Shown here one piece after another: positions 17,468-45,940 of a stretch of DNA of 64,000 nucleotides. The stretch is from a virus (taxonomy: Duplodnaviria; Heunggongvirae; Uroviricota; Caudoviricetes): positions 1 to 64,000 of IMG/VR virus record IMGVR_UViG_3300014205_000001. One strand, 5' to 3'. How positions within the stretch are numbered: position 1 is the first letter of the stretch; every line of letters begins with the position of its first letter. The translations under genes were made by a program, and so were the position numbers. The notes under the pieces were generated by a model. It was given only the letters and a program-made list of their open reading frames with translations, was not told the DNA's origin and searched no databases.

Positions 17468-18016
17468 TTAGTTTTTATTTAATTTAAATTTGTTTTTAAT
17501 TGTTCGGTAAATAAAACTTACTATGGACTTCGGTTTGAATTGATCTACTGCATGTTTTTCATGGTTGGTTATTTTTATTGATTTATAATTGTGACCCAGG
17601 TGGGGTTCGAACCCACAACCGGTGCGGTTAGGCGCCGCACTGCTCTGGCCAGTTGGAGCTACGGGGTCTTGTTGTTGTTTAAATGCTAATCGATAATTCG
17701 ACGTGAATTTTCGTGTTAATTCGCCTGGTTCAATGCAAACACTTGTTGCTTCATTGTTATAATCAGGTTCATGAAATAAAGAGTAATGAACGTTATTCTT
17801 TTCCAATTTATCGACTAATTTCATTAATTCCATTTCATTTGGAACTTCTAAACAAGCGATGTAGTTGGATGTATCATGCCAATCTTGAGTGATTTGACGA
17901 TGAGTTAAAGAAAATTCAAATGCCGAATGTAAGGACTGTGCAATAAATGCACCGGGATTCGGGAGATCAATTCGAGTAACTACTACTACTTTGGGATTTA
18001 CAATCTACTTTTTCAT
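17468..18016 (-). CDS. Pth2-like peptidyl-tRNA hydrolase with in-frame TAG at codon 4 (MKK*IVNPKVVVVTRIDL...)
   Basis: reading upstream of the tracked 17833 start in the same frame gives VVVTRIDLPNPGAFIAQSLHSA...IACLEV...FHEPDYNNEATSVCIEP, the Pth2 pattern; the only upstream ATG is at 18016, followed by TAG at 18005-18007. Confidence 0.75.
17592..17668 (-). tRNA. atypical tRNA, Arg(CCU)-like, with G33 and 6-bp anticodon stem, inside the Pth2-like ORF
   Basis: GACCCCG TA GCTC CAACTGGCCA GAGC A GTGCGG CGCCTAA CCGCAC CGGTT GTGGG TTCGAAC CCCAC CTGGGTC A. Confidence 0.7.
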
Positions 18017-20319: not shown

Positions 20320-20508
20320 TTACGATTCTTTATTGTTTTCAGGTAAAATAACTGCTTGGTATCTAAATCCATCTGCACGAAAAGGAAACCCATACAAGAC
20401 ATAACCTTTGCTTAAAAATAAATTTACTTTTTCACTTAATTTTTCAGCACTGTCGCTATTTAGTAATAGATACACCTGTTTTACTTCAGTTACTTTTACT
20501 TCACTCAT
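20320..20508 (-). CDS. small DUF1737-like protein
   Basis: LSEKVNLFLSKGYVLYGFPF...YQAVI. Confidence 0.6.
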   Translation of the reverse strand: MSEVKVTEVKQVYLLLNSDSAEKLSEKVNLFLSKGYVLYGFPFRADGFRYQAVILPENNKES

Positions 20509-21668
20509 TTATGAGAAATTGCTGTTAAATATTTTAATTTGTAGTGCTGATTTAAAACATCTCCTAAATCTTTACCTTCGTAACCTTGTTGTTGAAATTT
20601 TTTCGTTGTTTCAGTAGAAGGACGGAAATCAACTAAATATTTCAAGTACTTTGAATTGTTCCCAAAAGACAATATATCTTCTGGGTATAATGAACACGAT
20701 TTCCATTGTTTATAAAATAATAACGGATGAAACAGTTTAACATGTACATCATCTGCATTACAATAGTTCAACAAAAAATCTACATTATTACAAATCACAG
20801 TAGGAAATTTACGTTCAATTAAAATTCCTTTTGCAATCGTAGGTACATATTTGCAAATTGCTGCAATCCAACAGCTAAAAGATTTGATTTTATCGTATTC
20901 CACAAAATCAAGTGCAATAGTGGGTACACTTACAAAAATTGTTGTATTTAATTTGCTATTGAATAGTAATTCAGTTGTATATTTTAAATCAAAAGATGAT
21001 GAATAAATAGTAGCTAATTCATTATAGATACGTTCGTATGTAACATTTAACGACGGATCATCCTGAATTGCTTTTAAGGTAAATTCTTCAATTTTGAAAT
21101 TTAAACGTGCTGCAAAACGTATTGCACGAAGTTTACGTAAATTATCTTCTTCAAAACGAAAAAAAGGATTACCTACAGCGCGGATTACACCTAACCATAA
21201 ATCACGAATACCACCTACCAAATCAATTACAGTATTTTGACTGATGTTGTAAAATAACGCATTGATTGTAAAGTCCCGACGTAACACATCATCAAACATT
21301 GTTACACCAAATCTAACTTCAGTATTTCTGTCAGATGTGTTATTTAAATCTTCGCGAAATGTTGCAATTTCGTATACAACATCATGTAATACAACTGCAA
21401 CGACACCAAAATGTTCACCTTGAAGTTGACATTGAATATTGGCGCGTTTCATTAATTCAATCACCTTGTTAGGTAACAAATTAGTACATAAGTCATAATC
21501 TTTAGGAGTTTTACGTAAAAATACATCACGTATACAACCACCCACTAAATATAGTTCATAACCATTTTCTTCAAATATATTTGCCAATTGACGAATATCA
21601 GAATTGAGATTGTGACGCAAGTACCATTCAACTTGAAATTTGAAACGTATTTTATTTAGTTTGAACAT
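20505..21668 (-). CDS. cca: tRNA nucleotidyltransferase (class II CCA-adding enzyme / poly(A) polymerase family)
   Basis: LYLVGGCIRD...KDYD, EIATFR, RRDFTINAL, FEEDNLRKLRAIRFAARL motifs. Confidence 0.88.
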   Translation of the reverse strand: MFKLNKIRFKFQVEWYLRHNLNSDIRQLANIFEENGYELYLVGGCIRDVFLRKTPKDYDLCTNLLPNKVIELMKRANIQCQLQGEHFGVVAVVLHDVVYEIATFREDLNNTSDRNTEVRFGVTMFDDVLRRDFTINALFYNISQNTVIDLVGGIRDLWLGVIRAVGNPFFRFEEDNLRKLRAIRFAARLNFKIEEFTLKAIQDDPSLNVTYERIYNELATIYSSSFDLKYTTELLFNSKLNTTIFVSVPTIALDFVEYDKIKSFSCWIAAICKYVPTIAKGILIERKFPTVICNNVDFLLNYCNADDVHVKLFHPLLFYKQWKSCSLYPEDILSFGNNSKYLKYLVDFRPSTETTKKFQQQGYEGKDLGDVLNQHYKLKYLTAISHK

Positions 21669-23555: not shown

Positions 23556-23626
23556 TCGCGCTAGCAAGAATCGAACTTGCGACAAAGGCTTATGAGACCC
23601 CTGAGATACCACTTCACTATAGCGCG
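23556..23626 (-). tRNA. tRNA with CAT anticodon (Met, initiator-like; Ile2 not excluded)
   Basis: CGCGCTA...GGGGT CTCATAA GCCTT...GCAAG TTCGATT CTTGC TAGCGCG A. Confidence 0.85.
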
Positions 23627-24045
23627 GTATTTAATAATTGAATTGCTTTATCAGCTAATTCTTCAGTTAAACCTAAATATGAAATAGGTTGTATAAAATT
23701 TTTTAATTCATTGTAGTTACTAATTCCTTGCATTTTATCATCCAGAATCACGTAATTAGACCACTGATTTTCATCCAGCCAATGTTTTATTTCTAATCCT
23801 CGATCAACTCCCCAGATAGGTGTAATCCCAATCACATCAACACCAACACCATTTTGTAAAAAGATATTTTGTAAGTCGTTTATATTAGGCCAACGTACTC
23901 TCCAAGTAGAAGTTACTACACATTGTGCATTTGTTTCATCTACTATTCGATTATATTGTTCAACACATTTTTTACCCCATGTTCGTTTACTATGACCATA
24001 AAATGGAAATAATACTCCGTCTATATCTGTAAAAATTATGTTCAT
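23617..24045 (-). CDS. HAD-family phosphatase (Swiss-Army-knife RNA-repair-like HAD)
   Basis: IIFTDIDGVL, VTSTWR, RGLEIKHWL, YVILDD. Confidence 0.8.
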   Translation of the reverse strand: MNIIFTDIDGVLFPFYGHSKRTWGKKCVEQYNRIVDETNAQCVVTSTWRVRWPNINDLQNIFLQNGVGVDVIGITPIWGVDRGLEIKHWLDENQWSNYVILDDKMQGISNYNELKNFIQPISYLGLTEELADKAIQLLNTAL

Positions 24046-25797: not shown

Positions 25798-25812
25798 TAT
25801 AAAAAATATTTG

Positions 25813-25885
25813 TTGGGACTATAGGAATTGAACCTATTATCTCTACCTCATACGGTAGCGTTTTCACCAGCTAAACTAAATCCCA
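25813..25885 (-). tRNA. tRNA-like gene with 6-nt anticodon loop (undetermined or pseudo)
   Basis: TGGGATT/AGTCCCA acceptor, normal D and T arms, CTACC GTATGA GGTAG. Confidence 0.65.
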
Positions 25886-26140: not shown

Positions 26141-26221
26141 TGTCCAAGAAGGGAGTCGAACCCTCATGCATTTCTGCGGCAGTTTTTGAAACTGCTGTGG
26201 CTGCCGTTACACCACTCGGAC
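26141..26221 (-). tRNA. tRNA-Leu(CAA)
   Basis: GCAGT TTCAAAA ACTGC, long variable arm. Confidence 0.92.
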
Positions 26222-26674
26222 ATTTTTTAATCTTTTTAATTTTTTGTTTTTAGAACAATATGTCTCTGTCTGCGAATGACAGTTAGGACAAAGTATTCTT
26301 AAATTTTTTAATCGATGATTTGTTTTATCTCCATCAATGTGATCAAGTTCGCAATTAATAGGTTTATTATTCCATTCATCAATTTCACATTCTTCACATT
26401 TGTTAAGTTTTAATCCTTCTTTAATTAAACGTAATTTTAATTTATACGTAGAATATTGTGGATGTAAACCTTTAAGAATATCTTTTAATTTGAATTTATG
26501 CAATTCATATTCATAATCTTCTCTTTTAATTCCTTTTCGTCCTTGATTAGCTTTATAACAACCTAATTTCTTTGCCAATCTAATAAAAGGATTTCTATTC
26601 AATCCTAAAATTTCTGCAGCTTCGCGCATTGTTTTTGCTTCATTGCATACTTTTATAAATTCTGTTTCATTCAT
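26207..26674 (-). CDS. HNH homing endonuclease inserted in tRNA array
   Basis: N-terminal HTH; CEEC...LDHIDGDKTNHRLKNLRILCPNCHSQT. Confidence 0.9.
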   Translation of the reverse strand: MNETEFIKVCNEAKTMREAAEILGLNRNPFIRLAKKLGCYKANQGRKGIKREDYEYELHKFKLKDILKGLHPQYSTYKLKLRLIKEGLKLNKCEECEIDEWNNKPINCELDHIDGDKTNHRLKNLRILCPNCHSQTETYCSKNKKLKRLKNVRVV

Positions 26675-26958: not shown

Positions 26959-26993
26959 AAAAACAAAAGGACCAATTTAAATTGGTCCTTTGT
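26959..26993 (-). terminator. attenuator terminator of the Leu/Ile/Thr/Cys/Met tRNA array
   Basis: AAAGGACCAAT-TTAA-ATTGGTCCTTT then TGTTTTT. Confidence 0.85.
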
Positions 26994-27015: not shown

Positions 27016-27090
27016 TTAGACCATAGAGCAGTTACATAACATTGTTATGCAAATAATCGTAAGTGTTAATATTAGTGTTGAAGTTTTCAT
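27016..27090 (-). CDS. leader peptide MKTSTLILTLTIICITMLCNCSMV
   Basis: 24-codon ORF between promoter and terminator; 18 of 23 non-initiator codons are Thr/Leu/Ile/Cys/Met. Confidence 0.85.
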   Translation of the reverse strand: MKTSTLILTLTIICITMLCNCSMV

Positions 27091-38305: not shown

Positions 38306-38794
38306 TTATATGTTGTTTTTAATTTCGCGTTCAGCATCTTTTTTCTTTAAATCTTCACGTTTGTCGTAATTTTTCTTACCAGTACAGATATGAATATCTA
38401 ATTTCCAAAAACGCTGATGATTTTTATATAAACGGCCTGGGATGCACGTAAAACCTTTCATCTGTAGTTTCTCACGGATTTCTTCCATTTCGCTCTTATT
38501 CAGTAATAATTTACGTGGGCGTGATTCAACAACAGTTACTTTATCATTCAATATATGATTTGCTAAAGGTGTAATCATACAACCTAATAAGACAAAATCC
38601 TTCCCGTCAAAATTACAATAAGCAGCATCGATTGAACAGTTGTGTTCATTGAGTGCTTTCACTTCCCAACCTTCTAACATGATTCCTGCAGTATACTTTT
38701 CATGAGTATGATACAGAAAATTCAATTTTTTAAAGGAATACGTGGGAATTACCTTTTTTACTTTTATTTCTTTACCCGCGTTTGTCGTTGCCAT
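38306..38794 (-). CDS. smpB: SsrA-binding protein SmpB
   Basis: YTAGIMLEGWEVKAL, RPRKLLLNKSE, GFTCIP, GKKNYDKREDLKKKDAERE. Confidence 0.9.
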   Translation of the reverse strand: MATTNAGKEIKVKKVIPTYSFKKLNFLYHTHEKYTAGIMLEGWEVKALNEHNCSIDAAYCNFDGKDFVLLGCMITPLANHILNDKVTVVESRPRKLLLNKSEMEEIREKLQMKGFTCIPGRLYKNHQRFWKLDIHICTGKKNYDKREDLKKKDAEREIKNNI

Positions 38795-44350: not shown

Positions 44351-44824
44351 TTATAAATTTTTCAAAAAGTTTATTGTAACTTCGTTAACAAAGAAAGGTT
44401 CTCCTTTTCCTTTTAATGTTTTCATTACATGACCTACATATAAACCTAACAGTCCTGTATTACCATTCTTATAATCAGTTAAATATCTAGGAAATTGTAA
44501 TACAAATTCCCGCAATATTCTTTCGATTTCTTTTCGTTGTAATCCACACAAACCTAAAACGACTAATGACATCTTTAACATTTCATTAAAGTTAGTTTCA
44601 CATTCTTCAATTGAATTACCCATTGCAATGGGTCCGCCTTCGCCTTCATATATTGCCATAAAACGATCTTCATCAAGTGTTTCACCACTACGATACATTG
44701 TACATTTTAATTCTACTTTTGTCATCCCATCAATTGTATTGGGACGATAATGTATCATGCCAGTATTACTATTTTTATAGTAATGATCTAACCATTTTTT
44801 TTCTATTCTATTTTCCATATTCAT
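44351..44824 (-). CDS. protein with C-terminal GatB/YqeY-like tRNA-binding domain
   Basis: YKNGNTGLLGLYVGHVMKTLKGKGEPFFVNE resembles GatB C-terminus; start re-placed to the ATG just after tRNA-Gln. Confidence 0.7.
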   Translation of the reverse strand: MNMENRIEKKWLDHYYKNSNTGMIHYRPNTIDGMTKVELKCTMYRSGETLDEDRFMAIYEGEGGPIAMGNSIEECETNFNEMLKMSLVVLGLCGLQRKEIERILREFVLQFPRYLTDYKNGNTGLLGLYVGHVMKTLKGKGEPFFVNEVTINFLKNL

Positions 44825-44826
44825 AG

Positions 44827-44900
44827 CTGCCCCACGAGGATTCGAACCTACGATTACCTGAGTCAAAATCAGGGGTCACTGCCAATTAGACGACAGGGCA
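44827..44900 (-). tRNA. tRNA-Gln(TTG)
   Basis: TGCCCTG/TGGGGCA acceptor, CCTGA TTTTGAC TCAGG. Confidence 0.88.
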
Positions 44901-44910
44901 TTATATTTTG

Positions 44911-44998
44911 TTGTCCCACCAGGATTCGAACCTAGATCGAAGGCGTATTACCGCTCGGCGTTCAAAGCGCCGTGTTCTGCCAGTTAAACTATAGGACA
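44911..44998 (-). tRNA. tRNA-Gln(TTG) with 20-nt variable region
   Basis: TGTCCTA/TGGGACA acceptor, CGGCG CTTTGAA CGCCG, variable AGCGGTAATACGCCTTCGAT. Confidence 0.85.
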
Positions 44999-45002
44999 TT
45001 AT

Positions 45003-45039
45003 AAAAATCAAAAAGCCTGATAAAACAATTATCAGGCTT
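45003..45039 (-). terminator. attenuator terminator before tRNA-Gln pair
   Basis: AAGCCTGATAA-TTGTT-TTATCAGGCTT then TTTGATTTTT. Confidence 0.88.
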
Positions 45040-45057
45040 CGTGTAAATTTGTATTAA

Positions 45058-45135
45058 TTAATTCAACAACGTGTCTGACAATATTTTTAAATATTGTTGC
45101 TGCTGCCATTGTGAATATGTAATTAAAATTTTCAT
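45058..45135 (-). CDS. leader peptide MKILITYSQWQQQQYLKILSDTLLN
   Basis: 25-codon ORF with CAA TGG CAG CAG CAA CAA, then terminator, then two tRNA-Gln. Confidence 0.88.
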   Translation of the reverse strand: MKILITYSQWQQQQYLKILSDTLLN

Positions 45136-45143
45136 TATAGTTG

Positions 45144-45214
45144 AGCGATTGAGGAGAATCGAACTCCCGTCTTTGCCTTGGCAAGGCAATGTAATACCAT
45201 TATACCACAATCGC
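45144..45214 (-). tRNA. tRNA-Gly(GCC)
   Basis: TTGCC TTGCCAA GGCAA; U73. Confidence 0.93.
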
Positions 45215-45224
45215 ATTTGTAGTG

Positions 45225-45295
45225 AGCGAATGAAGGGAATCGAACCCTCGTATCCTGATTGGAAGTCAGGTGTAATACCATTATACTACATTCGC
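45225..45295 (-). tRNA. tRNA-Gly(TCC)
   Basis: CCTGA CTTCCAA TCAGG; U73. Confidence 0.93.
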
Positions 45296-45364
45296 ATGTG
45301 GCAGACATCGCTTAACTGCCGAGAAGTGTACCTTTTCTCTTCGAAATTTCTTTCGCGGTTTTTG

Positions 45365-45436
45365 TGGAGCTTAGGGGAATCGAACCCCTGTCCGTTGAGT
45401 GCAAATCAACAATAATAGCCTCTATACTAAAGCCCC
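45365..45436 (-). tRNA. tRNA-Ala(TGC)
   Basis: GGGGCTT/AAGCTCC with G3:U70; GTTGA TTTGCAC TCAAC. Confidence 0.92.
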
Positions 45437-45636
45437 ATTTTTATTTGTTCAGCTAAATAAAGATAGCTGTGTTGTTTCTTTTACGATCAATAGCGTTGTT
45501 AAAGTCTACTACTGAAGTTTCATAATCGTCATCATACATTCTGACTTTCATTTCTTTTTTGTTTATTACGTAGAAAAAAGATAAAATTACTAACACATAT
45601 TTAATTCAATTAATCATTTTGTTTATTTTTATTTTG

Positions 45637-45712
45637 TAGCCCTTATAGGATTCGAACCTATGATCTCCTCTTTGTAAGAGAGGCGCTTTAAAACCAGCTA
45701 AGCGAAAGGGCC
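45637..45712 (-). tRNA. tRNA-Val(TAC)
   Basis: CCTCT CTTACAA AGAGG; ATAGG TTCGAAT CCTAT. Confidence 0.92.
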
Positions 45713-45719
45713 ATATAAC

Positions 45720-45752
45720 AAAAAAATCCGAACTGTTGGGTTCGGATTTTTT
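45720..45752 (-). terminator. attenuator terminator of the Val/Ala/Gly/Gln tRNA array
   Basis: AAAAAATCCGAAC-CCAACA-GTTCGGATTTTTTT, ending 7 nt before tRNA-Val. Confidence 0.88.
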
Positions 45753-45772
45753 AAATTTCTTTTGTTATTTCA

Positions 45773-45859
45773 TTAACATAAGTTATCCGGACCGTGTGAT
45801 TTCCACACCGCTGCTGCGCCTTGTTGCCCGACTACTAATATGTTATTGAAGTTTTTCAT
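45773..45859 (-). CDS. leader peptide MKNFNNILVVGQQGAAAVWKSHGPDNLC
   Basis: 28-codon ORF with run GTA GTC GGG CAA CAA GGC GCA GCA GCG GTG. Confidence 0.88.
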   Translation of the reverse strand: MKNFNNILVVGQQGAAAVWKSHGPDNLC

Positions 45860-45863
45860 ATAA

Positions 45864-45940
45864 TGTATATATAAATAATTTGTTGCTTTGTTTAATAATA
45901 TACTACAATTATAAGAATAATTTTTTATATGTGAAAATTA
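45864..45940 (-). promoter_or_regulatory. promoter cassette of tRNA array 2 (close copy of 27096-27174)
   Basis: TTATAATTGTA motif plus TAAAC-N16-TATATATA. Confidence 0.7.

Follow-up and report, generated by a model that had tools for sequence, protein, structure and literature searches.

The leaders trpL and the multivalent thrL and ilvL are leader-peptide attenuators of amino-acid operons, and the pheST attenuator (pheM) places phenylalanyl-tRNA synthetase under control of the charged-tRNA level. In PMC11805395, the his leader is described as having a short ORF that contains the control codons, three competing pairings (1:2, 2:3 and 3:4) and an intrinsic terminator, with termination as the default when the ORF is untranslated. 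Here we describe a phage locus, A2, that very probably acts as a ribosome-controlled transcription attenuator in front of Val, Ala and Gly tRNA genes, judging from its sequence and that of its relatives. The phage modules share with hisL, thrL, ilvL and trpL the ORF, the control codons, the competing pairings and the terminator, but they are phage-borne and would control tRNAs, which makes for a direct feedback loop, and up to six of them occur in one genome, covering most amino acids and including serial nesting. As in pheST, a component of the translation machinery would be attenuated, although pheST controls a synthetase, serves one amino acid and is chromosomal. The T-box riboswitch likewise antiterminates on uncharged tRNA, but it binds the tRNA directly and involves no leader translation.

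The closest functional analogue, as far as the accessible text of PMC10272220 and PMC8421152 goes, is the trn operon of Anabaena, an array of spare tRNAs that stays off until translation comes under stress; it differs in that a protein repressor, TrcR, acts at initiation and the whole array responds together, and a term search of the accessible text of PMC8421152 gave no occurrence of "attenuat" or "leader". Phage tRNA supply can also rescue infection, depending on expression level, as reported in the excerpted sections of PMC11555353 for a T5-like tRNA-Tyr against retron-Eco7 and for tRNA-Lys against PrrC; for these defence-countering tRNAs the same sections describe a strong promoter and no on-demand control, and contain neither term, which are equally absent, by term search, from the obtainable portion of the huge-phage paper PMC7162821. 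Our literature search, which covered listings and the starts of abstracts and had attenuator surveys in subscription journals outside its scope, found no description of tRNA genes controlled by attenuation, whether in phages or in bacteria. The kind of feedback is known for amino-acid genes, and its target (tRNA genes), multiplicity and nesting appear to be new. The reason for the presence of tRNA genes in phages has long been debated, in terms of codon bias, host tRNA decay and defence evasion. An on-demand switch would imply that phage tRNAs are a conditional replacement for depleted species, each leader could serve as a ready-made reporter of the tRNA that fails in infection, and no earlier attenuation loop would have had tRNA genes under the control of tRNA supply, here with a serial logic.

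Leader A2 and the tRNA genes behind it

The window, the whole stretch of 64,000 nucleotides that was analysed, comprises bases 1-64000 of a 391,061-bp virus record (G000; 31% GC) that has direct terminal repeats and is classed as complete. All features of the focal locus lie on the minus strand. The top-scoring promoter-like site (11 of 12, and a promoter by motif only) spans 45908..45937 and, by a genome-wide motif scan, carries a motif that is common to many genes of the phage and to the leaders at 27090 and at genome position 302507. The leader ORF of 28 codons, read from the sequence at 45773..45859, starts 49 nt after this site. Between the site and the Gln tRNAs the genome-wide scan lists no further promoter-like site; a weak sigma-70-type match (9 of 12) lies at 45057. 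Codons 9-18 (45806..45835) are indeed the ten consecutive Val/Gly/Gln/Ala codons of the original prediction, with 3 Val, 2 Gly, 2 Gln and 3 Ala, and a run of 10 such residues is found in just 1 of 3187 short ATG ORFs (15-35 aa) genome-wide, namely A2 itself. The excess of these four residues over the entire peptide is modest (11/27, p=0.011), and for five of the ten control codons the share within their codon family is no more than 9% in the phage.

All six downstream tRNAs that had been named were recovered by a tRNA scan, as tRNA-Val(TAC) (45636..45712), tRNA-Ala(TGC) (45364..45436), tRNA-Gly(TCC) (45224..45295), tRNA-Gly(GCC) (45143..45214) and two copies of tRNA-Gln(TTG) (44910..44998, with a long variable arm that is unusual for Gln, and 44826..44900). 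The prediction placed all six behind the one leader, but the Gln pair sits behind an additional leader and terminator (45135-45012) that the prediction had missed. This nested module, A2b, consists of a 25-codon ORF (45058..45135) that begins 7 nt past tRNA-Gly(GCC) and has five Gln codons among codons 9-14, followed by a terminator found by terminator scan (45012..45040). A2 would directly gate Val, Ala, Gly and Gly, whereas the Gln tRNAs would need read-through of A2 and A2b in series, and the two Gln codons in A2 are explained by the position of the Gln pair behind this second gate. A GatB/YqeY-domain gene (44351..44818; PF02637, E=4e-08) starts 8 nt after the last tRNA-Gln and is likely to be part of the same transcript as the Gln pair, inside the Gln-gated unit.

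By folding, region 1 (45826..45844) is predicted to pair with region 2 in untranslated RNA, and the claimed 1:2 pairing is part of the MFE fold of A2 (z=-5.5). The core of region 2 (45785..45793), the predicted 5' strand of the antiterminator by folding and duplex test, lies inside the ORF, and its alternative partner is the core of region 3 (45739..45747) in the 5' arm of the terminator; the proposed complementarity at 8 of 9 positions is borne out for 45793-45785 against 45747-45739, with one mismatch (duplex p=0.04 versus shuffles). The intrinsic terminator (45720..45752, by terminator scan and folding) is a hairpin at 45752-45721, and its run of seven U stops at 45720, leaving 7 nt to tRNA-Val(TAC) at 45712, exactly as predicted. 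The A2 stop codon is 27 nt from the first G/C of the terminator stem (20-32 nt in the six modules of G000), so that a ribosome on the stop codon would not reach the terminator. Predicted energies are -23.4 kcal/mol for the 1:2 domain, -10.6 for 2:3 and -14.8 for the terminator.

Compared with leader-peptide attenuators as a class, the locus thus has its ORF between the promoter-like site and the first controlled gene, control codons in a run that fits the genes downstream (by tRNA identity), an intrinsic terminator past the ribosome at the stop, a predicted 2:3 antiterminator that is exclusive with the terminator and weaker than 3:4 at equilibrium, a 1:2 hairpin predicted to give termination when untranslated (from growing-chain folds of the focal RNA), and a register that, with an assumed footprint, lets a stalled ribosome free region 2 and a moving one cover it. 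It stands apart from the amino-acid operon attenuators, which control biosynthetic or synthetase genes, in that the downstream genes are tRNAs. We rejected an identity with the Rfam leader families (Thr_leader, Leu_leader and others), none of which reaches its gathering score (Thr_leader has 27.6 of 55 bits, from the terminator part only), and with the T-box, whose Rfam model has no match at the locus.

To follow the switch codon by codon, we folded transcripts that stop at the terminator loop, placing a ribosome on each codon in turn and assuming a footprint of 9 nt past the A site. In this model, region 2 holds the 5' arm of the terminator through the matched run and releases it 1-2 codons later in 6/6 modules of the phage; for A2, the probability of arm capture is 0.85 up to and including codon 19 and 0.01 at codon 21 and beyond. 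In the full-length A2 transcript at equilibrium the terminator is kept at every ribosome position (P 0.99), and of the six modules only A4 and A5 flip. The A2 switch must therefore be kinetic. When untranslated A2 is folded as a growing chain, the 1:2 pairing appears first and the terminator follows. For some modules truncated untranslated RNA is predicted to give 2:3 as well, which makes the no-translation state of the modules uncertain. The probability of a sequestered 5' arm was dropped as a test, as 217/303 shuffles reached 0.5.

Codon match, register and serial order across modules

A blind scan of G000 for Met-Lys ORFs of 12-40 codons ending within 90 nt of a terminator gave 19 matches, 6 of them before tRNA groups. 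Apart from A2 and A2b, these are the sister leader A1 (27016..27090, minus strand), in which 18/23 residues are Leu/Ile/Thr/Cys/Met and which precedes a Leu, Ile, Thr, Cys and Met tRNA cluster, and the modules at genome positions 200751 (Phe, Trp, Lys, Asn and His tRNAs; 17/24 leader residues matched), 234874 (Tyr, Tyr; 5/16) and 302507 (Ser, Arg; 11/27). The true assignment of the six leaders to their tRNA sets ranks 1 of 720. Most tRNA gene clusters of G000, which has 34 tRNA genes by ARAGORN at its default cut-off, are preceded by a codon-matched leader and a terminator; within the genome, no leader module was found at the Pro/Glu/Asp cluster at 233940, the group at 201311-200780 and the tRNA-Arg at 17591. 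A second promoter-like site lies at 26963 (minus strand), between the A1 terminator and tRNA-Leu.

Relatives were sought by a pattern that combines a start codon, a U-run and a tRNA T-loop and is blind to codon content. It yielded 120 of an estimated total of about 250 viral loci and 120 of some 1300 estimated cellular ones, with full modules at 73/120 of the viral versus 9/120 of the cellular loci obtained. Applied to these loci, to 28 regions from capsid-related phages and to G000, a fixed rule returned 110 modules, 102 of them distinct and 101 with a tRNA set. Many loci end short, which leaves some tRNA sets incomplete, and the modules are related by descent, so that counts overstate their independence. 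Over the 101 modules, the fraction of codons 7-16 matching the downstream tRNAs is 0.64, compared with 0.21 for shuffled sets (0/20000 shuffles), and with a single module for each of 38 tRNA-set classes it is 0.66 versus 0.22. This enrichment is strongest at codons 9-14 and has vanished by about codon 19, and the peptide sequence varies with the tRNA set and is not conserved across modules. Matching to the modules' own anticodons is weak overall (334/464 codons versus 320.5 expected; 245/10000, p about 0.025), indicating that leaders are matched mainly by amino acid. ATA makes up 22/32 Ile codons in the presence of tRNA-Ile(TAT) versus 1/9 in its absence, and AGR codons give 7/13 versus 4/20; there is no synonymous matching for Ser, Leu or Gly, and the trend for Val is reversed.

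The matched run tends to stop at the point from which a ribosome would occupy region 2. Among the 79 modules that passed filters out of 101 folded, the collapse codon falls 0 to +3 codons after the last matched codon in 56, compared with 31.0 (sd 3.6) under permutation (0/20000; rho 0.53). The duplex between region 2 and the terminator arm reaches p<=0.05 against shuffles in 75/101 modules versus 5/75 strong terminators of G000. The predicted regions 2 and 3 co-vary across modules: in a swap test on 17 orthologous Cys/Val/Leu modules, own pairs average -13.1 and swapped pairs -9.3 kcal/mol (0/20000, uncorrected for kinship). In the nearest orthologues of A2 (L342 and L384) all three strands stay complementary with different letters; L384 was recovered by a pattern lacking the tRNA term and then proved to have Val, Gly and Ala tRNAs downstream. 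The swap test within this A2 family, whose three members are too few for significance, gave 3273/20000, with the focal region 2 ranked second and pairing as well with the L384 arm. Every hallmark of a ribosome-mediated attenuator that can be read from sequence is present and withstands controls across about 100 related modules.

The order of modules carries a further signal. In 15 pairs of consecutive modules, which are not independent (at least three sets are orthologous, and several members may have their own promoter), those residues in codons 7-19 of the upstream leader that are unmatched by its own tRNAs match the tRNAs of the next module in 36/86 cases, compared with 17.3 (sd 5.0) for random sets (11/20000). 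In the reverse direction, downstream leaders match upstream tRNAs in 12/84 cases versus 14.5. One second module, L065, is false; without it the upstream match is 31/76, by hand subtraction and with no new null. Upstream leaders thus carry the codons of downstream modules and not the reverse, as read-through on stalling requires.

Modules also occur in the published huge-phage records LR756502, LR745206, LR756504, LR756501 and LR756500, and in Lak-C1 (MK250029; L398, L399) the main tRNA blocks are preceded by two long multivalent leaders that, by eye, fit the amino acids of the tRNAs downstream. A strain of about 96% identity from one wastewater study differs in A2 at codons 8 and 19 and in the length of the U-run; no listed difference falls in codons 9-18, region 2 or the stem, two indels not being displayed, and its A2b lacks 3 nt, in frame, within the Gln run and a single nucleotide past the run. 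No tRNA is present in the cultured relatives PTm1, MA9V-1 and MaF61, the tRNA cluster of phage PAU has no leader module, and a blastn search of cultured phages with the focal cluster yielded matches of tRNA length only. An exact tRNA-Val pattern had 0 matches in viral contigs, the protein downstream of the cluster had no confirmed match in metagenomes, and a focal-codon pattern found 8 metagenome loci, none with a tRNA; a looser version returned 92 viral loci with 2 modules. One RNA run contained a small share, assembled as contigs and limited to tRNA-length pieces and one piece of 198 nt, and carries no information on transcript ends. A metagenome leader and terminator of like build (L294:1501-1640) stand before a protein gene instead of a tRNA.

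Proposed mechanism and trigger of the switch

According to the mechanism we propose, a ribosome that translates A2 rapidly would cover region 2, the terminator would form and a leader RNA of ~180 nt would end at 45720, while a ribosome stalled at codons 9-19 would leave region 2 free to capture the 5' arm of the terminator, so that transcription continues into the tRNA genes. Without translation, 1:2 would form first and transcription would stop, as in his. A shortage of Gln would open both A2 and A2b, and one of Val, Ala or Gly would open A2 alone. The switch would presumably be driven by host RNA polymerase with coupled translation, the polymerase being assigned to the host because a search of the phage genome found no gene for an RNA polymerase beta subunit. 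Coupling is suggested by the spacing of ordinary terminators, of which 9/37 lie 12 nt or less from a stop codon; a high share of such close terminators marks transcription-translation uncoupling. The purpose may be to replenish exactly those tRNA species that are depleted in infection, by host tRNA decay or by tRNA-cutting defences. By extension, and with only a modest lean in its favour, we suggest that large phages run a genome-wide, amino-acid-resolved tRNA homeostat, with an own attenuator for each tRNA group, serial where needed, through which a removed species would be sensed and replaced, and that the cassettes in Bacteroidota would be back-up tRNA units.

The switch alone cannot distinguish loss of a tRNA from amino-acid starvation, and it is possible, if rather doubtful, that the real signal is starvation or generally slow translation, with the tRNAs competing for the scarce amino acid or forming part of a general stress response. 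An uncharged and a missing tRNA would stall the ribosome alike (as for the his leader in PMC11805395), the matching at the level of isoacceptors is weak, and the rare codons in the run would slow translation generally. However, separate leaders for the tRNA groups and the nested Gln module give amino-acid-specific outputs, ATA tracks tRNA-Ile(TAT), and extra tRNA would presumably not relieve a shortage of the amino acid. This alternative has the same mechanism as replacement of depleted tRNAs and differs in the trigger alone.

Two further explanations would change the mechanism itself. One could speculate that the sign of the switch is opposite, that it acts after transcription, for instance on processing or stability of the tRNA precursor, or that the peptide is the effector. 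The 2:3 pairing in truncated untranslated RNA of some modules would fit an opposite sign, and a hairpin 7 nt from the 5' end of a tRNA might affect cleavage by RNase P; yet region 2 begins inside the ORF directly after the matched run, in register, the codons of downstream modules appear in upstream leaders only, and an effector peptide would hardly change with the tRNA set and go unconserved, and we regard this family of explanations as improbable. It is very improbable that the hairpin is just a normal terminator that leaks constitutively or is overcome by antitermination at a time set by the phage, and that the ORF and its codon match are by-products: the permutation, register, duplex and swap tests exclude chance, and no NusG-family gene was found in the phage genome, even though the terminator dominates equilibrium folding, some tRNA clusters are leaderless and A1 has its additional promoter-like site.

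Cellular copies and phage setting

Among the nine cellular modules, six look codon-matched by eye. Four stand-alone cassettes of leader, terminator and tRNA (Pro, Ile, Gln with or without Cys, and Phe) are found in Pedobacter frigoris and three Mucilaginibacter genomes, and no obvious phage gene was noticed among the accessory genes near them, with ORF starts judged by eye and one neighbour scanned. Such chromosomal copies in cultured Pedobacter and Mucilaginibacter strains would make the switch testable without the uncultured phage. In a sample of the Pedobacter family, 5/151 genomes match the pattern, the recognised module being that of the centre genome and the other four being represented by the printed match only; either the chromosomal cassette is patchy or the search pattern is too strict. 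On a Chitinophaga contig (L177:1200-2606), a leader with a run of Trp codons, a terminator, tRNA-Trp and the gene for anthranilate synthase I (trpE) lie on one predicted transcript, an arrangement that is possibly a bridge from trp attenuation.

G000 is T4-like, encoding a Gp23-type capsid protein and a T4-like terminase, and ARAGORN finds no tmRNA in it. Its capsid relatives among 31 matching phage records include uncultured huge phages (the best five at 37-40%), Lak phages and phages of Tenacibaculum, Chryseobacterium and Flavobacterium, and on the strength of these weak matches to other phages we infer that the host belongs to the Bacteroidota. Near the tRNA clusters are genes for SmpB (window 38306-38794), a PolyA_pol-family nucleotidyltransferase (20505-21668), an HAD_SAK_2 RNA-repair domain (23617-24045) and an RNA ligase (L003). 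A gene for a PTH2-family peptidyl-tRNA hydrolase (window 18016-17477, minus strand; PF01981, E=1.3e-8) has as its only ATG start one that leads to an in-frame TAG at codon 4, possibly a programmed amber read-through, and a short ATG...TAG start also precedes the gene next to it, at about 17561. An HNH-like gene below the Pfam cut-off is inserted in the Leu tRNA cluster (window 26207-26674), and a tRNA of undetermined type lies at 25812-25885. The tRNA-like genes of L003 (genome 201163-201311, 201035-201123 and about 200455-200526) have anticodon loops of 5, 6 or 8 nt or odd arms, and the first of them directly follows a promoter-like site, with no leader. Finally, a Thg1 gene of just 135 codons with Asp-rich last codons (L004:692-1099, genome 233491-233898) has its stop codon within a hairpin that resembles a terminator and lies ~17 nt ahead of the leaderless Pro/Glu/Asp tRNA cluster.
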